A stretch of DNA of 64,000 nucleotides, from the NCBI GenBank assembly GCA_028874075.1, contig JAPPLU010000087.1:6738-70737 (forward strand), read 5' to 3'. The notes below the pieces were generated by a model. The model had not been told where the DNA came from. It made no database searches and was given only the letters and a program-made list of their open reading frames with translations. The position numbers and the translations under genes are program-made. Each line of letters begins with the position of its first letter. The first letter of the stretch is position 1. Positions 4,549-44,465 of the stretch are shown here, in pieces. The stretch comes from Chloroflexota bacterium. Its GTDB lineage: Bacteria > Chloroflexota > Dehalococcoidia > Lucifugimonadales > UBA3495.

Positions 4549-7500
4549 TCACCCTTCTATCGGCTTCAAGTAGGAGTCAATCTGCTCAATGTTGTAGCTG
4601 CCCCTTTGCATCAGCAGGGCTTCCACCGCGGCCCGGGCGGTGTCCAGGGAGGTGAAACAGGGGATGCGTCGGTCCACGGCGGCCCGGCGGATGTAATAGC
4701 CGTCCCGCATTACCGACGTGTCGCCGGACAGGGTATTGACCACCGCCGCTACGGTCCCGTCGTTAATCACATCCACCACGTTGGGATAGGACTCGGTGAG
4801 CAGTTTGGTGACCATGGTGGCGGGCATGCCGGTGGCCTGGATCATGGCGGCCGTGCCCTCGGTGGCGTACAGTTTGCAGTCGGCCTCCAGCAGTTCCCGG
4901 ATCAGGGGCAGGGCCTCGGCCTTGTGCTGGTCGGCGATGCTCAGCAGCACCCCGTCGCCCCGCTTCAGGCTCAGGCTGGCCGCCATCAGCGCCTTGGACA
5001 GGGCCCCGGGGAAATCGCGGTCGATGCCCATCACCTCACCAGTGGACTTCATTTCCGGCCCCAGGTAGGAGTCCACGCCCACCAGCTTGGACATTGAGAA
5101 GACGGGCGCCTTGATTGCCGCCAGCTTTTGGCGGGGCCACAGGCCGCCGGAATAGCCCATATCCGCCAGCGTCTCCCCCAGCATGACTCGAGTTGCCAGG
5201 CTGGCCACGGGTACGCTGGTAACCTTGGAGATGAAGGGGATGGTGCGGCTGCCCCGGGGGTTCACCTCAATAATATAGACGGTAGTTTCCGAGTCGTCCG
5301 TAGGCGAGTGGGGACTGCGGTAGGCACTGCCGCCCTGGATGACAAACTGGATGTTCATCAACCCCCGCACGCCCATGGCCAGGCCGATGCGGGTGGCGTA
5401 GTCCACCAGGGTATCCACTTCCTGCTCGGTCAGGTTCAGACCGGGGTAGATGGCCATGGAGTCGCCGCTGTGGACTCCGGCCCGTTCGATGTGTTCCATG
5501 ATGCCGGGGATCAGCACCTGCTCCCCGTCGCAAATGGCGTCCACCTCGCATTCCTTGCCTTCCATGTAGTGGTCCACCAGGACCAGCCGTTCCGGCGTAA
5601 CCTCGGTGGCCACCGTCAGGTACCGCACCAGTTCCGAGGCGTTCTGGACGATTTCCATGGCCCTCCCGCCCAGCACGTAGCTGGGCCGGACCACCACCGG
5701 GTAGCCGATGTTCTGGGCCACCTGCAGGGCCTCGGAAACCGATGCCACCGACGCCCCCGGCGGTTGGGGAATGCCCAGGCGGGAGAGGAATTCTTCGAAC
5801 CGCTGCCGGTCCGACGCCACATCGATAGCGTCGGCGCTGGAACCCAGGATGGGCAATCCGGCGTTGGCCAGGGACTGGGACAGGTTGATGGCAGTCTGCC
5901 CGCCGAACTGGACCACCGACGGAGGAGGATCATCGTCCACCGTCTCGTTGTCAATGATGTCCCGCACCGCTTCCTCGTCCAGCGGCTCGAAGTAGAGCCG
6001 ATCGCTGGTGTCGAAGTCGGTGGAAACGGTCTCCGGGTTGGAGTTGATCATCACGCTGGAAACGCCGGCCGCAGAAAGGGCCCAGGCGGCGTGCACGCTG
6101 CAGTAGTCGAACTCGATCCCCTGGCCGATGCGGATGGGGCCGCTGCCGATGACTATGGCCTTCCTGCCAGGCAATGGCGGGGCCTCATTCTCCTGCTCGT
6201 AGGTGCTGTAATAGTAGGGAGTAACTGCCTCGAACTCGGCGGCGCAGGTGTCCACCATCTTGTACACCGGCCGCAGATCCCAGCGGTGGCGCAGGTCCCG
6301 CACCTGCTCCGGCAGCATGTCGGCCAGGGTGCCCACCTGCACGTCGGAAAAGCCCAGCCGCTTAGCCCTATACAGCAGGTCCGGTGTCAATGTCTCACCC
6401 AGCAGCCTCCGCTCCATGCTGACGATGCGCTGCATGGCGCTGATGAACCAGGGATCAACGTAGGTCTTCCCCAGCAGTTCGTCGGCGGATGTGTTACGAC
6501 GCAGCGCAGACATCATGGCCCACAGGCGCAGGTCGTTGGGCTCCAGCAGGCCCTCAGAGTCCCGCCCCGACTTCTGACCCTCGGCGGCGGCGCCCTCCCA
6601 CAGCAAAGTGCGGTTGCCAATCTCCAGGGAGCGGGTGGCTTTCTGCAACGCCGCCTCGAAGGACCGGTCGATGGCCATCACCTCGCCGGTGGCCTTCATC
6701 TGGGTGGTAACCTGGCGATCGCCGTTGGGGAACTTGTCAAAGGGCCAGCGGGGAATCTTGACCACGCAGTAGTCCAGGGCAGGCTCAAAGGCGGCGCCCG
6801 TCTTGCCGGTGACGGCGTTGGGAATCTCGTGGAGACGTTTGCCCACGGCGATTTTGGCTGACACCCGGGCAATGGGATATCCGGTGGCCTTGCTGGCCAG
6901 GGCCGAACTGCGGCTGACCCGGGGGTTCACTTCGATGATGTAGTAGTCGGAGTCCGGCTCCCACTGGGCCTGCAGAGCCTCGGCCACCCGGGGATGGGGC
7001 CGCAGGGCCATCTGGATATTGCAGCCACCTTCGATGCCCAGGCCCCTGATGATCTTCAGGCTGGCCGTCCGGAGCATCTGGTACTCCTTATCGGTCAGGG
7101 TCTGGCTGGGGGCAACCACAATGCTGTCGCCCGTGTGGGCGCCCATTGGATCCAGGTTTTCCATGTTGCAGACGGTGATGCAGTTGTCGTCGCCGTCCCG
7201 GATAACCTCGTACTCGATCTCCTTCCAGCCCACCAGGGAGCGTTCCAGCAGCACCTGGGAAATGGGACTCAAAGCAAGACCGTTGCTGACAATTTCCTCG
7301 AACTTCTCGCGGGTGTTGGCGATGCCGCCGCCGGTGCCGCCCAGGGTGTAGGCCGGCCGCGCCACCAAGGGTAAGCCCATCAGGTCGCAGTACTCTCGGG
7401 CTTCTTCCATGGAGTTGACGGTGCGGTTGGGCGGTTCCGGTTCGCCGATGTCGTGCAGGAAGTTGCGGAAGAACTCCCGGTCCTCGGCTTTGCGGATGGT

Positions 7501-7878
7501 CTCCAGGGGGGTGCCCAGCAGCCGCACGTTGTACCTGTCCAGCACCCCGGCGTCGGACAGGGCCACGGCCAGGTTGAGGCCCGTCTGCCCGCCCAGGGTG
7601 GGCAGCACTCCCTGGGGTCGCTCCCTGGCAATGATGCGCTCGATGACCTCCACGGTCAGCGGTTCGATGTAGACGTGGTCGGCAATGTCGGTGTCGGTCA
7701 TGATGGTGGCCGGGTTGGAATTGATCAGCACTACGGAGATGCCCTCTTCCCGCAATGCCTTGCAGGCCTGGGTTCCCGCGTAGTCAAACTCGGCAGCCTG
7801 GCCGATAACTATGGGGCCGGAACCGATGACCAGGACTTTTTCCAGTGGCGGCGTCGTGCTATCCAAATCGTTGCTCAA
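4549..7878 (-). CDS. carB: Carbamoyl-phosphate synthase large subunit
   Basis: 1109-aa ORF. Duplicated ATP-grasp halves, an IGQAAEFDYAGTQA N-terminus and an MGS-like C-terminus. Confidence 0.97.
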   Translation of the reverse strand: MSNDLDSTTPPLEKVLVIGSGPIVIGQAAEFDYAGTQACKALREEGISVVLINSNPATIMTDTDIADHVYIEPLTVEVIERIIARERPQGVLPTLGGQTGLNLAVALSDAGVLDRYNVRLLGTPLETIRKAEDREFFRNFLHDIGEPEPPNRTVNSMEEAREYCDLMGLPLVARPAYTLGGTGGGIANTREKFEEIVSNGLALSPISQVLLERSLVGWKEIEYEVIRDGDDNCITVCNMENLDPMGAHTGDSIVVAPSQTLTDKEYQMLRTASLKIIRGLGIEGGCNIQMALRPHPRVAEALQAQWEPDSDYYIIEVNPRVSRSSALASKATGYPIARVSAKIAVGKRLHEIPNAVTGKTGAAFEPALDYCVVKIPRWPFDKFPNGDRQVTTQMKATGEVMAIDRSFEAALQKATRSLEIGNRTLLWEGAAAEGQKSGRDSEGLLEPNDLRLWAMMSALRRNTSADELLGKTYVDPWFISAMQRIVSMERRLLGETLTPDLLYRAKRLGFSDVQVGTLADMLPEQVRDLRHRWDLRPVYKMVDTCAAEFEAVTPYYYSTYEQENEAPPLPGRKAIVIGSGPIRIGQGIEFDYCSVHAAWALSAAGVSSVMINSNPETVSTDFDTSDRLYFEPLDEEAVRDIIDNETVDDDPPPSVVQFGGQTAINLSQSLANAGLPILGSSADAIDVASDRQRFEEFLSRLGIPQPPGASVASVSEALQVAQNIGYPVVVRPSYVLGGRAMEIVQNASELVRYLTVATEVTPERLVLVDHYMEGKECEVDAICDGEQVLIPGIMEHIERAGVHSGDSMAIYPGLNLTEQEVDTLVDYATRIGLAMGVRGLMNIQFVIQGGSAYRSPHSPTDDSETTVYIIEVNPRGSRTIPFISKVTSVPVASLATRVMLGETLADMGYSGGLWPRQKLAAIKAPVFSMSKLVGVDSYLGPEMKSTGEVMGIDRDFPGALSKALMAASLSLKRGDGVLLSIADQHKAEALPLIRELLEADCKLYATEGTAAMIQATGMPATMVTKLLTESYPNVVDVINDGTVAAVVNTLSGDTSVMRDGYYIRRAAVDRRIPCFTSLDTARAAVEALLMQRGSYNIEQIDSYLKPIEG

Positions 7879-16200: not shown

Positions 16201-16560
16201 CGTGGCCTCCCTGTGCCGGTATTTGCGCCGTCCGGGAGATATGGGGGAAATCGGAGGATTGCGGGAAATGATACAGGGCAAATGGACGGGCCGCAACAAT
16301 TGGGACCGGCGCAGGTGGATCAAGGAGCGCTTCTCTATCCATTGGGTAAGTGGGATCTGCGAACCCTGTCAACTTCTGTTAGAGTTCATGGGACAGGCTC
16401 GGGCTCCGGCCCATCCTCATTACCTCAGAATGAAACTGTGAATCCAGGCTTGTTACTGCCATCTCCTTATTAACCACGGACGGTGTGAAGTCTGTACCGC
16501 AGACTCTGCCGCGCCTTCCAGGTTTACGAAGCATCCAGCATTAGGAGTCCTGACCAGGCT

Positions 16561-17268
16561 ATGCTATTAGAGAATAGAGTGGCGCTAATTACCGGCGCGG
16601 GCCGGGGCATAGGTCGCGCCATCGCCCTGGCCTTCGCCCGGGAAGGGGCGCTCGCCATCGTTACCGGCCGCGACATGGCACGCCTGGCGGAGGTGGTTGA
16701 CCAAGTACGCGCCGGCGGAGGGAAGGCGGAAGCCTTCTCGCTGGACGTAACCAACGACGTTGACGCGTACCACGTTGTAGAGCAGGTTATGGCGAACTGG
16801 GGAACCGTCGACCTCCTGGTCAACAACGCTGGCGTGATCACTTACCATACGCCGGTGTGGGAGACCACTATGGAGCAGTGGGACGAAGTGATGAACACCA
16901 ACCTGCGGGGCATGCATCTCCTCTGCCGGGCAGTAGCGCCCCACATGATAAGCAAAGGGCAAGGAACGATCATCAACATAGGCTCATCGTCCGGCCGCCG
17001 GGCCGAAGGGGAAAACGGGGCTTACGTGGCCTCCAAGTGGGGCGTCATAGGATACACGGCCTCCCTCGCCCAGTCGCTGCGGCCCTACGGCATAAGCGTG
17101 AACGGTATCAATCCTGACTGGGTGGACACCGACATGGCGAGGGCCAGCCATCCCGAAGGAGACTCAGATTGGATAACCCCAGAGGAGGTAGCTGAGGCCG
17201 CTCTGTACCTGGCGACCAAGGCGCCAGGGCTCATGAGCGGGCAGTTTATCGATATGTTTGAGTCCTGA
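16561..17268 (+). CDS. SDR family oxidoreductase (FabG-like)
   Basis: 235-aa ORF. TGAGRGIG, NNAG and YVASK motifs. Confidence 0.92.
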   Translation: MLLENRVALITGAGRGIGRAIALAFAREGALAIVTGRDMARLAEVVDQVRAGGGKAEAFSLDVTNDVDAYHVVEQVMANWGTVDLLVNNAGVITYHTPVWETTMEQWDEVMNTNLRGMHLLCRAVAPHMISKGQGTIINIGSSSGRRAEGENGAYVASKWGVIGYTASLAQSLRPYGISVNGINPDWVDTDMARASHPEGDSDWITPEEVAEAALYLATKAPGLMSGQFIDMFES

Positions 17269-17342
17269 CGGTATGGCGTGTTGAAGTCCGGCAGGCGAGA
17301 TTCCTGGATCCAAGAACGTTAAGAAAGCACCATTCAGGCACC

Positions 17343-17456
17343 ATGGTGAAGAAGTACGACCATATAATCGTCGGAGCGGGTCCCGCCGGCGCGGCCCGTG
17401 CAGCCCCCTTTCGGGAGACTTCCATCGCACTGTCTACTCCCGGAAGCCGGGGCTGA
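17343..17456 (+). pseudogene. Remnant of an FAD-dependent oxidoreductase N-terminus
   Basis: MVKKYDHIIVGAGPAGAARAA... is a Rossmann GxGxxG dinucleotide-binding start, but a stop follows after 37 codons and no continuation is recognisable. Confidence 0.45.
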
Positions 17457-17541
17457 TTCCCGGGGCCAGCGGGGTATGCCCGAGAAAATCAACCACACTA
17501 ATGCAAACCACATGAATCTGAGCGCTACCCCTCGCAACCAT

Positions 17542-18107
17542 CAGGGCAATCGCATTTTGAGTCAGGCAAGAGGGGCGTCCGCCAGAGGCGGATCGCTCAA
17601 GGGAATCGCCGCAGTCTCCAACATGGAGGTTCCCGCCTGCCTTCGGGGCATTCAGTCTGGGGAATTTTTTTATATTCGTCCCATTTTGGGCCGTTTCGGG
17701 CCGTTTCGTATCTGAATCTCAGGTCAGATACGACTCCGGTGGCCCGAAAGTGGGCCACTCCCCAGATAGGAAATGGGTTGGACAAGCGGGCCATTTTGGG
17801 CCGTTCCGGGCCGTTTTGAGCCACTGACTTAAACCAGAGCCGATGACACGCCCTCACTCCGGCACTCTTCCATGGGGAGAGAAGTGATTCAGGCTTGACG
17901 GGACCATGGATAGAAGGCGTCATGGAAGTATGGTAGAGAAGCGTTAACCGGAGAATCAAGAGGCAAGTGTCACCAGGGCAATGGCGTTTTGAGTCCGGCA
18001 AAAGGGGGGCAGTTTTCGCCCAAGGTATAACCCCGCAGTCTCCAGGCTCGAGGTACCAGACTGCGCTAGAACGACGGGCTTTCCCGAATCATAACGCGAT
18101 TGCCCTG
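17542..18107. mobile_element. 566-bp non-coding element with terminal inverted repeats and a 10-bp target-site duplication (MITE-like)
   Basis: Left end cagggcaatcgc (17542-17553) and right end gcgattgccctg (18096-18107) are perfect 12-bp inverted repeats, 19 of 22 when extended. The flanking direct repeat tcgcaaccat sits at 17532-17541 and 18108-18117. No credible ORF inside. Confidence 0.7.
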
Positions 18108-18426
18108 TCGCAACCATCCGTTTACATCAATTTAACAAGGCATTAGAGTAAGGGGACAGCCAAGAGTCGAGGTGAGGGCGTTTTCCCGAAGGTACTTGCT
18201 ACCAGAACTTCGGGTTCTCCGTCGACCCTCGATGGTCTGGGATAGGCAGCCTCCCGAAACTCTTGAAGGCCCCGGAACCGGGCGGCAATTTACTTGGTCA
18301 GCCACGGCGTCCCTGCTGCATTTTCGTTGCTTTTGACTCAGTTTCTGCATTGCGTCGCCATTTAGTTGCAGTTTAATTTACCAGTCGCCCGCCCGGCTCC
18401 CCATCCTGTCCAAGCCTGGTGCAAGA

Positions 18427-19119
18427 ATGAGCGCTACCCACGATTTCTCCGAGTCTTTCTACAAGGAGCACGCCCAGCGTTACGCCGTGGTAAGCCACAA
18501 CTTTATCCAGTCGGTGTATAGCGATGTCTCCCACCCGGGCCTGACCGGAGACATGGCCCTGGTTGACCGCCTCCAGGAGTTGGTTCCCAAGGGCAGCAGG
18601 GGACTAGATGCCGGCTGCGGCGCCGGTGCGCGGGACGTTTTTGACTACTGGCAAAAGGGGTATGACATCTACGGGATAGATGCCGTGGAAGAGAACATTG
18701 AGGAAGCGCGCCGTCTCCACCCGGAAATTGCGGAGAGGGTGTCGGTGGTCGACCTGCGCGAGCCTCTTGCGTCTCTGGATTCCTCTTTCGACTTTGTAAT
18801 GTGCAATGCGGTAATACAGCATATCGAACCGGACATAGCCCTGAACACGACCTTGCCCGAGCTCGCCCGGATTTTGAAGCCGGGCGGTATTCTGCAGCTG
18901 ATGTTCAAGTACGGCAACGGTATCGCCACCATTTACGACAGAGATTACGGAACAGACCGTACTTTCCAGCTCTACGCCGTTGAAGAGGTGATCGACACCC
19001 TGATAGCCCAGGGGTTAAGAGTGATTCCCGAAGATGGAGAAAGGCTAGGAGGGGTCATGTATTTCAAGGACCCCAAGCCTATGGACCACTGCGTGTTTTT
19101 TGCCCGCAAGAACGGGTAA
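18427..19119 (+). CDS. Class I SAM-dependent methyltransferase
   Basis: 230-aa ORF. LDAGCGAGARD motif I and FDFVMCNAVIQH. Confidence 0.85.
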   Translation: MSATHDFSESFYKEHAQRYAVVSHNFIQSVYSDVSHPGLTGDMALVDRLQELVPKGSRGLDAGCGAGARDVFDYWQKGYDIYGIDAVEENIEEARRLHPEIAERVSVVDLREPLASLDSSFDFVMCNAVIQHIEPDIALNTTLPELARILKPGGILQLMFKYGNGIATIYDRDYGTDRTFQLYAVEEVIDTLIAQGLRVIPEDGERLGGVMYFKDPKPMDHCVFFARKNG

Positions 19120-19140
19120 ACGTAGGGTTCCCCTGTCCTG

Positions 19141-20271
19141 TTGAACCAATCTGGCAGCCGGAGGAATGGGGTGACCGGTCCGACAGTTCCCGACGACCTG
19201 CAGGACATTACTCCTTTATGGTTGACCCGTGCTCTCTCCAGCAGCCGGGAACCGGAGGGTGCGTTCGTCACCGGATACACGGTGGAGCCTATCGCCGAAG
19301 GCAAGGGTTACATGAGCAGGCTTTACCGACTGTGGCTGGATTACGATGGGGAGTCCAACAATGCCCCAGACTCCATAATATCGAAACTACCGTCGTCGGA
19401 CCCTTTGCTGAAACTGGTTTATAAACGGCTTGGGCAAAACCTGAGAGAGGTATGTTTCTACCGGGAACTGGCTGGCCACGTCCAGGTGCAGACACCTCGC
19501 TGCTACTACGGCGAGAAAGACCCGGCCACTGGGAACACCATACTGCTGCTGGAGGACATGAACTATGCCCGGCAGGGTGACAGTGTAGCCGGCTGTACCC
19601 AGGAGGAAGTCCGCGCCTGCGTCGAGCAGCTTGCTCGGTTCCAGGCAAAGTGGTGGGATAACCCACGGCTGGACCACCTTGACTGGCTGCCATTGAGGAA
19701 CGACGAAACGGATACCTACGAGGAAATGTATGCGGGAGCCTGGCAGTCCCTCCTGCAGAAGGCCGGCACCGCAATGCCCACCAGGCTGCAAGACCTGGGC
19801 GACCGCCTGGCGCCAAAGGTTCGCGAGATAAAAGCCAGGCTCTCAAAACCGCCAATCACCCTGGTTCACGGGGATTACCGGCTGGACAACTGTTTTTTCT
19901 CGACGGCAGACGGCAGTCAGTCGGTAGTGGTGATGGACTGGGAATTCTGCGGAAGGGGGAGGGGTCCTTATGACGTGGCCACTTTCGTAAACGAGGCATA
20001 TTTGCCCCATGCAAGAAGGCGCGAGGAGATTGGCCTTCTGCGCCAGTACCATTCCCTTCTTGAGGACACTGGCGTTAGCCGATACTCCTTTGAGGAATGC
20101 CTGGATGATTACCGCCTGTCCATGCTGGAACTGTTCGTCTTCTGGATAGTTACCGGGGGCTACTGCAACTACGAGGGACAACGGGAGGGAAAGTACCTTC
20201 GCAATACCCTGATTCGGCTGGACGCGGCCATAGCTGATCTCAATTCCACGGAACTGGTCGCTATGCCCTGA
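19141..20271 (+). CDS. Phosphotransferase (APH / choline-ecdysteroid kinase-like) family protein
   Basis: 376-aa ORF. LVHGDYRLDNCFF catalytic loop and VMDWEF. The start codon is uncertain. Confidence 0.8.
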   Translation: MNQSGSRRNGVTGPTVPDDLQDITPLWLTRALSSSREPEGAFVTGYTVEPIAEGKGYMSRLYRLWLDYDGESNNAPDSIISKLPSSDPLLKLVYKRLGQNLREVCFYRELAGHVQVQTPRCYYGEKDPATGNTILLLEDMNYARQGDSVAGCTQEEVRACVEQLARFQAKWWDNPRLDHLDWLPLRNDETDTYEEMYAGAWQSLLQKAGTAMPTRLQDLGDRLAPKVREIKARLSKPPITLVHGDYRLDNCFFSTADGSQSVVVMDWEFCGRGRGPYDVATFVNEAYLPHARRREEIGLLRQYHSLLEDTGVSRYSFEECLDDYRLSMLELFVFWIVTGGYCNYEGQREGKYLRNTLIRLDAAIADLNSTELVAMP

Positions 20272-40076: not shown

Positions 40077-40430
40077 GGGGACGCGCGGGTTCGACAGGAG
40101 CGTCCTGGGGCAGATTGCAAGCCGAGGCGCCACCGCCCTCGTTAATCAGGTGGCACACAAATAACTGGCGAACGTGAATTCGCTCTAGCCGCCTAAGCGC
40201 GGCTACGTCCGTACCCTGCTACTCCCGGATGCGGGGCTACGGGCGCCATTAGGCCGGGATGCGGTTGCCCTGAAGCCGATAGGGGTTGCTCAAGATTAAT
40301 CGGCTGGCCTGACGGATATTAGGCCGGCGGAAGCTCCGACAGGCGAGAACTAGAGCGCCGGACAAGCTTGTAGTAGATCTAGTCTAGGGGCCTTTTGGAC
40401 GGGGAGTTCGACTCTCCCCCGTCTCCACCA
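40077..40430 (+). ncRNA. ssrA: tmRNA (transfer-messenger RNA)
   Basis: 5' GGGGACGCGCGGGTTCGACAGG and 3' GGACGGGGAGTTCGACTCTCCCCCGTCTCCACCA form the tRNA-like ends. The tag reading frame at 40167-40196 encodes GEREFALAA followed by a stop. Confidence 0.93.
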
Positions 40431-41533: not shown

Positions 41534-42583
41534 TCAGCCGGCGGCCAGGGCGGGCAAGATGTGGTTGGAGAAGGCCTGAACTTCCGCTTGGGGCGGCGCA
41601 AAGGTAAGGCAGGGCATGAGATAAAGCTGGTTGACGCCGTGTCGCTCCATTTCCCTAATGCGCTGCGTACAGTATTCCGGGGTGCCGATTAGCCCCAGGG
41701 CGTCGCATAGCTGCCCGTTGACTTCGTCGCTGACGAAGCCCGTCATGTCGATGGCTTCCTCCCAGTTGGGTGCGTGCCCCAGGTCGGGATAAATGTCGTA
41801 CACGGCCTGGGGTATCTTGTATTCGGGTATGTCATAGCCGGAATAGGGGAGCCAGTTGGGACCGCCCCACATGAGACCCCAGTGAACGGACACGGGCCGA
41901 GCCAGACGTCGGGCCTCGTCCACCGAGTCTGCGATGCAGGTCCTGACCGCAAACATAATGTCCAGGTCATCCAGGGTACGGCCGCTGCGCCGGGCGCCGA
42001 TTTCCAAATGCTCCAGGGCCTTTCCCACTATGCCGGGGGTGTAGCCCACCAGGGCAAGAGCGCCGTCGGCCACCTCGCCGGCCAGTTGGAGCGAGCGGGG
42101 TCCCGAGGCCGCCATTAGCACCGGCACACCGGCGCCGCCATCGCTGCCGGCGAAGTCCAGCCGATTCGTCATTCCGTCATATTCCACGCTTTCCCCGGCC
42201 AGCAAGGCCTTAACCTCAGTGATGCAGCGGCGCATCTGACGCAGGGTGGCGGGACGGCGGCCGATGGTACTGGCGGAAGTGTATCCGGTGCCGATAATTA
42301 TGCGGGTGCGGCCAGGGGCTATTTCCGCTACCGTTTGCGCTGCGCCAGCCAGCACCGGGGCAATGCGGCCAAAGGGGTTGGTAACCGCGGGGAAGAGGCG
42401 CAGGGTACTGGTGGCGCTGGCGGCCAGGCCCAGGGTCACAAAGGTGTCCCGGCATATCATCTGGCTGTCCAGGATTCCGGCGCCGTCAAAACCGGCAGCC
42501 TCGATCTGCCGGATCATATCCAGCAACTCGGGCATGGGCGAAGTTCCGGGTACGCGCATGGAGATTTTGATGGGCTGGGCCAT
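41534..42583 (-). CDS. LLM class (probably F420-dependent) oxidoreductase
   Basis: ATG at 42583 with GGAGG upstream (MAQPIKISMRVPG...). The track ORF extends to 42970 across a non-coding repeat, and that extension is rejected. Confidence 0.88.
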   Translation of the reverse strand: MAQPIKISMRVPGTSPMPELLDMIRQIEAAGFDGAGILDSQMICRDTFVTLGLAASATSTLRLFPAVTNPFGRIAPVLAGAAQTVAEIAPGRTRIIIGTGYTSASTIGRRPATLRQMRRCITEVKALLAGESVEYDGMTNRLDFAGSDGGAGVPVLMAASGPRSLQLAGEVADGALALVGYTPGIVGKALEHLEIGARRSGRTLDDLDIMFAVRTCIADSVDEARRLARPVSVHWGLMWGGPNWLPYSGYDIPEYKIPQAVYDIYPDLGHAPNWEEAIDMTGFVSDEVNGQLCDALGLIGTPEYCTQRIREMERHGVNQLYLMPCLTFAPPQAEVQAFSNHILPALAAG

Positions 42584-42803
42584 GGCGGATACCTCCGGTG
42601 GTGGGCTGACTTGATCAAGTTGACGCGGGAAAGTATACCAGCGCGGGGCAGCAGGCAGGACCGCAGCAACAAAGCTCCGATTCAGGCAGTCTGTGGTAAG
42701 GGCCCCGCGGATGCCCGCTTTTTCCCTTTTGCGGCAACTGCCAGATGCCGGTGAAATCCGGTATGACGAACGCCCTGACCAGCCAACCGGGGATTGCGCC
42801 ACG

Positions 42804-43125
42804 GCCTTCGAGCGTTCCCGAAGTAGGAATTTTTTGCTTTCTAGCGCCATTTTGGGCCGTTTCGTATCTGGCAGCAGGGCCATGACGGCGCCGGATGGCA
42901 CTCCGGTGGGCCCCCGGGGGCCGTTTTCCAGATAGGGAATCGCCCCGGGAAATGGCCCACGCCGGGCCATTTTGGGCCATTACGTACCACGGTCGGCAAG
43001 AGACAGAACTGAACCTGACTATAGCCCTGCTCCTCATTGCCAACTGTGGGTGAATCGGGACGACAATGAGATCATGAAATTATGGTAGAAGAGGGCTTTC
43101 CTTGATGACAATGGACAAATGTCAG
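42804..43125. repeat. Copy C of the GGGCCRTTYY-array intergenic element
   Basis: Anchors appear in the same order as copy B: ccttcga, ggaatttttt (42826), ccattttgggccgtttcgtatctg, actccggtgg + GC palindrome, ccagatagggaat, gggccattttgggcc, atggtagaag (43082), gggctttcc. Confidence 0.55.
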
Positions 43126-43270
43126 CGGTCTGCCCCGACGAGCGTTCCCGAGCAAACCACCTAATTCGCACTGTCAATGCGGCTTCGCCAGGGATGGCCG
43201 CAAAGGTTACTGACAGTTGCTTATTGTGGAATCCATAGCGCGCCCAATAGACTGGCAGAGGTAACCCATT

Positions 43271-43292
43271 TTGTTACGCTTTTTGTTACGCT
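43271..43292 (+). promoter_or_regulatory. Tandem direct repeat ttgttacgct x2 (12-bp period) just upstream of the nuclease gene
   Basis: ttgttacgct occurs at 43271-43280 and 43283-43292, ending 15 nt before the ATG. Possible operator. Confidence 0.3.
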
Positions 43293-43307
43293 GCTGAGAG
43301 GTCAAAA

Positions 43308-43970
43308 ATGGCGCTCGCCCGCTTAACCGGTCCTTACTTCTGGGTGTCGTGGCTCAGCAAGCTGCTGGTAGGAGAAAGCTCTTGCCAGTGGGGCGTCTGG
43401 TTCCGTGCCCAGCACGAAGGCTCATCCTGGGAGAAGGTACCTTCCGATTTCGACCAGGTCCAGTGGCTGATAAAGCATGGGGAACTGCTGGAGCAGACTC
43501 GCCGCTATTACGAGCGGCAGGGGTACCTGGTGTCGGAAGCATCGCAGAACTCCTTTAATCTCAGGGGCGCTACCGCCACCCTGGCGGGCCGGCCCGACCT
43601 GGTGGTGACCAGGGATGGTGAAGTAGTGGTGGTGGACGTTAAGGTAGGTCAACCCAACGCTTCACATACGGCCCAGGTGATGACCTACATGTACGCACTG
43701 CCCCGGGCGATGCAAAGCATGTTTCATGGAACCAGGATCAGCGGTCAGGTGGTCTACCCGGACGGACCGGTGGACGTTCCCGAGGCTGCGGTGAGCCAGG
43801 AATTTATCGCCGCCCTGGGAGGACTAGTCCGAGGCCTGGCCGTCAGCGAGGCGCCCCGGAAAACGCCCAGCTGGAACGAATGCCGTTTCTGTCCCATAGG
43901 TGCCAGAGACTGCCCGGAGCGGGTAGACATTTGCGATGAACAACCCGTAGGGATTACCGAGGACTTCTGA
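43308..43970 (+). CDS. Cas4/RecB-like PD-(D/E)XK nuclease with 4-Cys cluster
   Basis: 220-aa ORF. Nuclease motifs are GRPDLVV...VVVVDVKVG (D...DxK) and QVMTY (QxxxY). Cys pattern is one N-terminal Cys (ESSCQW) plus CRFCPIGARDC. Confidence 0.7.
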   Translation: MALARLTGPYFWVSWLSKLLVGESSCQWGVWFRAQHEGSSWEKVPSDFDQVQWLIKHGELLEQTRRYYERQGYLVSEASQNSFNLRGATATLAGRPDLVVTRDGEVVVVDVKVGQPNASHTAQVMTYMYALPRAMQSMFHGTRISGQVVYPDGPVDVPEAAVSQEFIAALGGLVRGLAVSEAPRKTPSWNECRFCPIGARDCPERVDICDEQPVGITEDF

Positions 43971-44060
43971 GGGAGTTCAGAAAGACAGGGATTTGCGGTA
44001 TCCTGTTGGCGGTTGCTGCCGCCAACCGTTATATATCCTACATGCTGGCGAGAGACTGAC

Positions 44061-44465
44061 ATGGAGCGAGTAACGATACAGGAAGCATCTTACCGACTGA
44101 ACCTGTCCCAGGCGGAAATCCGCCGCTATATCCGGGAGGGCCGACTACGGGCGAGCCGGGAAGGCGGCCCCCAGGGGCGTACCTGGCTGGTGGAACTGCC
44201 CGAGGAGGGCTGGCTGGACGACGATAAGGCGCGCTACCACGAAATGGCCCAGGGAATGCCCGTATGGTGGTGGCCAACGGAGGCAAAGACGGGGCTGGCC
44301 CACTACATTCTCGATGTGGGCATAGAGGAAACTGTGCCAGTTTACCTCTGCGGGCTGGAAAGCGAAAATCTGTGGGCCGTTACGGGCCTGAAGACAGAAA
44401 ACTGCTGCCCCACCTGCCTGGGAATTGCCCACGAGCGGGGCCTTCCGCTGGCCCTGGACCAATAG
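44061..44465 (+). CDS. Excisionase/MerR-type HTH domain protein with a Cys-containing C-terminal domain
   Basis: Motif: MERVTIQEASYRLNLSQAEIRRYIREGRLRA (HTH_17-like). The C-terminus has LCGL...CCPTC. Confidence 0.6.
   Translation: MERVTIQEASYRLNLSQAEIRRYIREGRLRASREGGPQGRTWLVELPEEGWLDDDKARYHEMAQGMPVWWWPTEAKTGLAHYILDVGIEETVPVYLCGLESENLWAVTGLKTENCCPTCLGIAHERGLPLALDQ

Follow-up and report, generated by a model that had tools for sequence, protein, structure and literature searches.

A probable MITE-flanked composite transposon with ISAs1-type ends and a conserved non-coding passenger in a Dehalococcoidia genome

The element described here occupies positions 17542-18107 of a 64,000-nt stretch (the window) of contig JAPPLU010000087.1, from a Dehalococcoidia genome of the phylum Chloroflexota (assembly GCA_028874075.1). 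It is very probably a non-autonomous, MITE-flanked composite transposon with ISAs1-derived ends. In this composite, (i) two direct-orientation copies of a MITE (miniature inverted-repeat transposable element, of about 100-175 bp), a truncated left copy (L) and a complete right copy (R), both derived from the ISAs1 family of insertion sequences (ISs), would bracket (ii) a non-coding passenger module (M) of about 330 bp. An ISAs1-family DDE transposase, supplied in trans, is proposed to recognise the two outermost CAGGGCAATCGC termini and to move L-M-R as a single unit, while a staggered cut of the target and its repair would generate the 10-bp duplication TCGCAACCAT.

Boundaries and anatomy of the element

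The composite spans 566 bp, and its outermost ends are perfect inverted repeats over 12 of 12 nt (19 of 22 when extended). Its parts are:

17532-17541, no strand: left copy of the target-site duplication, TCGCAACCAT, identical to 18108-18117
17542-17570, plus strand: left terminal inverted repeat, of which the first 12 nt (CAGGGCAATCGC) are perfect and 29 nt are 83% identical to the right end
17542-17640, plus strand: L unit, the left portion of a MITE copy without a right terminal repeat of its own, about 71% identical to the start of R
17641-17973, minus strand (as its promoter-like motif): the passenger, module M, which is non-coding and kept in all composites (nhmmer E 7e-112 to 1e-37, 11 copies)
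17974-18107, plus strand: R unit, a full MITE copy of 134 bp that has both a left end of its own, CAGGGCAATGGC, and the right terminal repeat of the element
18079-18107, minus strand: right terminal inverted repeat
18108-18117, no strand: right copy of the target-site duplication, TCGCAACCAT, identical to 17532-17541

The 12-bp terminal inverted repeats and the identical 10-bp duplication of the original prediction are thus all in place. Within the window, CAGGGCAATCGC at 17542-17553 and its reverse complement at 18096-18107 are the sole exact matches, and the 10-mer TCGCAACCAT with the C that follows it forms an 11-mer (TCGCAACCATC) that is exact only at the two flanks of the element. A 10-bp direct repeat alone has a chance of about 4^-10, and the pairing of a 12-bp inverted with a 10-bp direct repeat lies far beyond chance. 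The matter is decided by other loci, where this architecture turns up again. A one-mismatch match to the terminal 12-mer at 40261-40272, inside the transfer-messenger RNA (tmRNA) gene 40077-40430 (tag peptide GEREFALAA), is probably due to chance.

The third, internal left end, predicted at 17974 with about 85% identity over 37 nt, is present in direct orientation with one mismatch to the outer end. L and R share 86% identity over these 37 nt (17539-17575 versus 17971-18007) and 78% over a second block of 32 nt (17609-17640 versus 18033-18064), and blastn aligns L to the start of R at 71% identity over 103 nt. The prediction of 'no credible ORF' inside the element also stands: an open reading frame (ORF) of 134 amino acids does run on the minus strand (17597-18001), but it is broken in the orthologous copy and in other copies and has no Pfam match, and M is thus rejected as protein-coding. 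A leaderless ORF that would start at the conserved ATG after the -10 hexamer of the promoter-like motif of M is rejected as well, as the substitutions in the orthologue are not biased to synonymous sites and the frames differ between copies.

The view that a unit of about 134 bp is the basic MITE is borne out by solo MITEs of 101-174 bp that have the same ends and duplications matching at 9-10 of 10 positions (L009 6670-6812, L011, L020 and L023; loci outside the window are cited by such handles), and L052 is a further solo MITE with such ends and duplication. Two loci, each with one perfect outer duplication, likewise uphold the idea of a composite that captured the GGGCC-array segment between MITEs. 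L009 135-949, from the more distant metagenome-assembled genome (MAG) CBDBMH010000002.1, starts with a complete MITE, followed after an 80-nt spacer by M and then by another MITE unit, all within a single outer duplication (10/10, ACCTCGGCTC). L013 7263-7789 holds two 174-bp MITEs around an unrelated, AT-richer passenger of 179 nt with TGTAACAT-type repeats, and its outer duplication is GGGTGTTGGG. The inner junctions of the composites carry no duplication, which is confined to the outer ends. The equivalent of the left unit is a complete MITE in L009 and L066, and is truncated in the window. Two further composites, L003 (~7480-7600) and L005 (~2125-2250), have an extra ~150 nt between L and M, including a hairpin (GTTCCCGGCGG...GCGGGAAC), and this stretch resembles the right half that the left MITE otherwise lacks, together with a spacer.

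Copies in relatives and family assignment of the ends

With the 22-nt end as the query against one genome per species, 14 loci are found, 13 of them in Dehalococcoidia MAGs, so that the copies looked for in relatives exist. The related Dehalococcoidia MAG OZ219949.1 carries four copies and CBDBMH010000002.1 carries two to three. L007 (OZ219949.1) is the orthologue of the window locus, with the element and both flanks 89% identical and the left duplication decayed to 8/10. L014, L003 and L005 of the same MAG are full L-M-R copies at other loci, with differing 10-bp duplications that each match at 7/10 (chance probability about 0.0035 each). In all, four further full copies with different 10-bp duplications are known and no ORF inside is conserved, consistent with the mobile, non-autonomous element that had been claimed. 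As the orthologous locus L007 already holds the element, the window insertion appears to be old rather than recent, predating the split from OZ219949.1, and the window copy is probably a fossil. The Logan contigs of the source run SRR10996925 fit with repeats here: one ends at 17621 and another starts exactly at 17973, as a k-mer assembler would be expected to break at repeats.

The duplication is 10 bp long in every case, and the 10-mers are mutually unrelated in sequence. These data weigh on the suggestion that the repeats are a chance arrangement, a structural repeat akin to repetitive extragenic palindromes or bacterial interspersed mosaic elements (REP/BIME), or the attL/attR attachment sites of site-specific recombination. 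Such a suggestion would fit the wide occurrence of the CAGGGCAATCGC-type end in short, palindrome-bearing intergenic units and the lack of a transposase nearby. It does not fit the duplications of exactly 10 bp and unrelated sequence that flank every well-preserved copy and bona fide ISs, nor a site with no integrase and no tRNA or tmRNA target; moreover, the 10-mer differs from locus to locus, which excludes a fixed att core. The duplication data effectively refute it, and its remaining probability is minimal.

The transposase family was approached by tblastn of Escherichia coli YhhI (an H-repeat protein belonging to the ISAs1 family) against all DNA fetched, which finds L015 5372-5794 (E 5e-16) in a Dehalococcoidia MAG that also hosts composites. 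An end of the CAGGGCAATCGCATTATGA type lies 65 nt upstream of the PF13808 ORF (3e-31) of L015, and this left end matches the right end of the window element (18107-18089, read inward) at 18 of 19 nt. L015 5280-7540 is a pile-up of mobile elements in which the ISAs1-type transposase gene is interrupted at ~5605 by a 1.9-kb IS (PF13701 transposase, 25-bp inverted repeats CCCCAAATCCACCACCTAATGGGAG), and an L-M-R composite begins 22 nt beyond. Homologues of the N-terminal transposase domain of L015 lead to two intact ISs in metagenome contigs:

L053, 2417-3655: 1239 bp, terminal repeat CAGGGCAATCGCGTYTTA, perfect 10-bp duplication GCGGTCCGGT
L057, 2419-3656: 1238 bp, terminal repeat CAGGGCAATCGCGTCTTA, perfect 10-bp duplication GAGGAAATGT

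Both ISs, which supply the transposase gene with the same ends that the original prediction had proposed to look for, encode PF13808 and PF01609, an H-repeat N-terminal domain plus a DDE domain (1.5e-35 and 1.5e-11 in L057), and their first 12 terminal nt are identical to those of the window element. L057 aligns to residues 6-374 of YhhI (tblastn, 35% identity, E 1e-60) across one frameshift, and L053 to residues 24-311 in two frames. A related transposase is encoded in L052, where the right end reads ...AATGCGATAGCCCAG. All element ends begin CAGGGCAA and come with 10-bp duplications, while the ends of the E. coli H-rpt are CAGGGAAAGATCA and CAGGGCAAGATTA (CAGGGA/CAAGAT). The ISAs1 family had been proposed, for which ISfinder gives ends of the CAGGG type, duplications of 8-10 bp and lengths of 1.2-1.5 kb. 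The proposal holds in that ISs homologous to YhhI and encoding PF13808 with PF01609 end in CAGGGCAATCGC and make 10-bp duplications; the assignment of the ends to ISAs1 passes this direct test at the family level.

The size of these ISs also helps to judge whether the element could be a simple internal-deletion MITE of one larger transposon, in which M is an interior remnant rather than captured host DNA. M always accompanies these ends, it has a promoter-like motif as upstream regions of transposase genes do, and no MITE-free 'native' M locus was found, all of which such an origin would explain. However, ISs of the ISAs1 family that have these ends measure no more than 1238-1239 bp, and nhmmer finds nothing resembling M in L053-L060. 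The composites also have three or four ends, not two, given the internal end at 17974 and the complete left MITE with both terminal repeats in L009 and L066, and in L013 the same MITE family surrounds an unrelated passenger. An origin by internal deletion is therefore considered highly improbable.

Several points weigh against the composite transposon with ISAs1-derived ends. No empty site of the window locus (reconstructed form CCCCTCGCAACCATCCGTTTACATC) was found, transposition is inferred from the duplications rather than observed, and the 64-kb window holds no autonomous ISAs1 copy. The intact ISs L053 and L057 are metagenome contigs without a taxon, agree with the window element in the terminal repeat over no more than its first 12-14 nt, and both have a frameshift in the transposase gene.

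Other searches for a partner led to separate elements. A scan of Joint Genome Institute (JGI) metagenomes yields mainly a soil MITE family of ~137-145 bp with the same 22-nt terminus. The IS630-type DDE_3 gene of L024 is rejected as the autonomous partner, being part of a separate element with its own inverted repeats, nested at a TA. Soil MITEs with CAGGGCAATCGC ends hold this IS630-type element at the same TA with different flanks in L024 (218-2068) and L026 (1-218), and such nesting twice at one TA points to a MITE that is targeted at a specific site, or else to a nested pair that was mobilised. An IS110 gene in L016 (2042-2989) is rejected as partner since it is of another family and inserted beside a CAGGGCAATCGC MITE unit; IS110-type elements may, to judge by this locus, target the CAGGGCAATCGC MITE repeats. 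Against plasmids, BLAST with the element or the soil MITE consensus as query gives chance matches only, a scan of viral contigs for the terminal repeat finds none, and a full-text literature search for the sequence motifs returned nothing relevant.

The passenger module and its copies

M, which had not been recognised earlier as a conserved, promoter-bearing module, is probably not junk. It has GGGCCRTTYY arrays and a TGACACTTGCC motif, and the following features are found in or near the two copies of the window:

17641-17675, plus strand: terminator-like hairpin and T-run at the left boundary of M, found in every M copy with a stem sequence that changes from copy to copy
17681-17716, plus strand: array 1, three 10-bp-phased GGGCCRTTYY-type repeats leading to the box TTTCGTATCTGA (17704-17715)
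17738-17773, plus strand: GGCCC/GGGCC hairpin (17738-17759) and the box CCAGATAGGAAA (17762-17773), inverted partner of 17704-17715
17788-17827, plus strand: array 2, three to four 10-bp-phased GGGCCRTTYY repeats
17930-17972, minus strand: sigma-70-like promoter motif, with TGACAC at 17972-17967, a -35 hexamer TTGATT at 17959-17954, an 18-nt spacer and a -10 hexamer TACCAT at 17935-17930
42781-43129, minus strand: second M copy without recognisable MITE arms, promoter motif at 43111-43082 (minus strand)
43211-43253, plus strand: promoter-like motif of the same architecture before a PD-(D/E)XK nuclease gene (TGACAGTTGCTTATTGTGG, 18 nt, TAGACT), conserved in L061-L067

Read on the plus strand, M runs from the T-run hairpin through array 1, two hairpins, the inverted box, array 2 and a variable stretch to the blocks ATGGTAGAG and AATCAAGAGGCAAGTGTCAC. 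The window contains 11 occurrences of GGGCCRTTYY where 2.7 are expected, and 5 of the 11 lie inside the element. An nhmmer profile finds M in 11 copies, including window 42781-43129 and L009 6156-6578. In the match between the element copy in the window and L009, M is 70% identical over 384 nt, and the arms match only in stretches of ~33 nt at their ends. The phased repeats and both boxes are kept between copies, with insertions and deletions in units of 10-11 nt; L014 and L009a each resolve the mismatch of the two boxes, in different ways. That M is better conserved than the MITE arms and outlasts them is only suggestive of selection on M, because so few lineages are available.

Structured RNA signals are slight. 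Rfam gives no match at E<=1 for 16500-19500, 42400-43400 or all of L009. RNAalifold scores M at -39.6 for the plus strand, where the covariation term of +1.4 lends no support, and at -27.1 for the minus strand; folding z-scores range from -4.8 to +0.8 and are weak and alike on both strands. In three copies, those of the PD-(D/E)XK locus, direct GGGCC repeats take the place of the central GGCCC/GGGCC hairpin. A viral scan for the GGGCC array returns giant-virus tandem repeats only, which are unrelated: in L040-L045 (IMG/VR giant-virus MAG contigs of ~46% GC), arrays of GGGCCATTTT/GGGCCGTTTT with 3-5 units lie beside other repeats. The resemblance of these arrays, otherwise dissimilar to M, is probably a coincidence.

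The right end of M has the minus-strand architecture TGACAC-TTGCC-NN-TTGATT-18-TACCAT, and the aligned copies keep the hexamers as TGACAC(T/C)TGCC-NN-TTGnnn, exactly 18 nt of varying spacer, and TACCAT. This conservation suggests a promoter that would fire leftwards. No conserved match to a sigma-54 or a plus-strand sigma-70 promoter is found in M. Against an expectation of 0.07, the window has two sites of the 16-nt motif TGACASTTGCYNNTTG, one at M and one at 43211 on the plus strand, where it heads the motif of the PD-(D/E)XK gene. In L061-L067, this motif (TGACASTTGCY-NN-TTGnnn-18-TAnACT) lies ~90-135 nt upstream of the PD-(D/E)XK start. Such a conserved motif upstream of a PD-(D/E)XK (Dna2/Cas4-like) gene may be the signature of a specific regulon. 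It is followed by short direct repeats, which are two TTTTGTTACGC units in the window and three CTCCCTGTTTGT units in L065. Beside the PD-(D/E)XK gene, window 44013-44465 encodes an HTH_17/MerR-like protein of 134-150 amino acids, one candidate for a regulator that binds the arrays or the TGACACTTGCC motif.

The copy of M at 42781-43129 raises the question of what is mobile. Similarity to MITE arms is not significant around this copy, nor around L009 6156-6578, and M is absent from the orthologous LLM/PD-(D/E)XK intergenic regions of L061, L063 and L064. Together with the better conservation of M than of its arms, this is what would be expected if M itself were the mobile or functional unit (e.g., a small RNA gene or a self-spreading site) and the adjoining MITEs were incidental nested insertions. 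L066 and L067, whose PD-(D/E)XK proteins are 90-91% identical to that of the window, hold M at this locus and speak otherwise: L066 keeps a complete 185-bp MITE (64-248) ~130 nt to the left of M, and in L067 a CAGGGCGATCGCGTC end (331) abuts the right edge of M exactly where the R unit of the composites starts. In addition, L009b keeps CAGGGCTATG at the M/R junction, all composites agree in the sequence of this junction (GTGTCAC|CAGGGCAATGG), and the duplications flank the outer MITE ends rather than M, which has no terminal repeats of its own. An independently mobile M is thus improbable. Since relatives keep a MITE or a terminal repeat beside the orthologous M, the arm-less window copy appears to be a decayed composite that lost both arms; M is found only with these MITEs, and the composite is therefore taken as its vehicle. 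L066 also has a 242-bp MITE of the same family inserted into M (639-880) with a 9/10 duplication, G(G/C)GTGAATCG.

As to what M does, the reading given the most weight, at a little short of an even chance, is that of a DNA-level regulatory module, in which a promoter and operator arrays for a DNA-binding protein would be spread by the composite. Alternatively, and as a tentative possibility, the promoter may drive a non-coding RNA of ~300 nt whose repeated motifs bind a protein. A neutral passenger is unlikely, and something else altogether is rather more so. On the other side of the scale from any regulatory role, the promoter motif of the element copy in the window scores 8/12, below the scan threshold, and is a motif match only that the scan does not list; the arrays lie downstream of the putative promoter, which is unusual for operators; and no binding protein or transcript of M is known. 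A more specific version is doubtful: M would be a self-contained mobile regulatory or RNA unit with a promoter of the PD-(D/E)XK class and a ~300-nt transcript or platform of 6-9 phased GGGCCRTTYY motifs binding one protein, and pairs of ISAs1-type MITEs would be the vehicle that seeds it upstream of unrelated Dehalococcoidia genes. If true, this would be a natural MITE composite that distributes a regulon element or a protein-sponge RNA.

Genomic setting and comparison with known systems

Removal of the element and one duplication restores ...CCCCTCGCAACCATCCGTTTACATCAATTTAACAAGGCATTAGAGT..., which puts the insertion point 3 nt upstream of a promoter-like motif (TTTACA-17-TAGAGT) that precedes a methyltransferase gene. 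In 5 of 5 composites the right neighbour is a plus-strand gene that starts 27-320 nt away, and several have a minus-strand gene on the left; with only five cases, no preference in orientation can be claimed. The genes that flank composites (methyltransferase, iron-containing alcohol dehydrogenase, alpha/beta hydrolase, LTD, thiamine pyrophosphate enzyme and DUF7700) share no function. On the left side of the window element, the truncated FAD-oxidoreductase remnant that had been noted is a 38-codon ORF (17345-17461, MVKKYDHIIVGAGPAGAA...) with an FAD/NAD-binding GxGxxG motif. The rest of the oxidoreductase gene does not resume past the element, and the truncation is therefore a separate event. 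A 12-nt direct repeat, TGAGCGCTACCC, occurs to the left of the element (17519-17530) and at the start codon of the methyltransferase gene (18428-18439, ATGAGCGCTACCC), with ~0.1 such pairs expected.

The element offers a worked example of how ISAs1-family ends give rise to MITEs and MITE composites in Dehalococcoidia, where mobile elements are little documented, and indicates that MITE composites can carry and spread a non-coding module with a putative promoter from species to species. In terms of annotation, the element accounts for a gene-free gap and for the assembly breakpoints at 17621 and 17973. If M is a regulatory or RNA module, it would give a way in to a factor that binds DNA or RNA, and to how this group controls a conserved nuclease gene.

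The arrays of M resemble, as a resemblance only, iteron and operator arrays. In parC of plasmid R1, two clusters of phased 11-bp repeats flank the promoter, and lambda attP has arm-type sites. M similarly has two clusters of 3-4 direct repeats spaced at one helical turn; the clusters are ~100 bp apart, point the same way and lie beside a promoter motif as well as an A/T tract. By contrast with those systems, no ParR, Rep or Int gene lies near M, the repeats are downstream of the promoter, and M is present in multiple chromosomal copies.

The ISAs1 family (ISAs1, IS1358, E. coli H-repeat/ISEc1 and YhhI/YdcC/YbfD) shares with the element the CAGGG(C)AA termini and the 10-bp duplication, and ISs with the identical first 12 nt encode the two-domain transposase (PF13808 and PF01609) within ~1.24 kb. 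The window element differs in that it has no transposase and is thus a derivative rather than an IS, its terminal repeat diverges from that of the E. coli H-rpt beyond about 8 nt, and the hosts here are Dehalococcoidia and soil bacteria, not Proteobacteria.

MITE-flanked composites are known from integron mobilization units, where a pair of MITEs forms the borders. Mosaic non-autonomous transposons assembled from Tn3-derived inverted-repeat miniature elements (TIMEs) are also known (PMC4133298). The common ground lies in two short, non-autonomous copies that bracket a passenger, the use of the outermost ends, a single duplication and mobilisation in trans. The MITEs here are instead ISAs1-derived, the passenger is a non-coding promoter-and-repeat module of ~330 bp rather than a resistance gene or integron, and the same window-type composite has spread as a family across species. 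The kind of element is thus already known, and the window element is a fresh example of it in an under-studied phylum.

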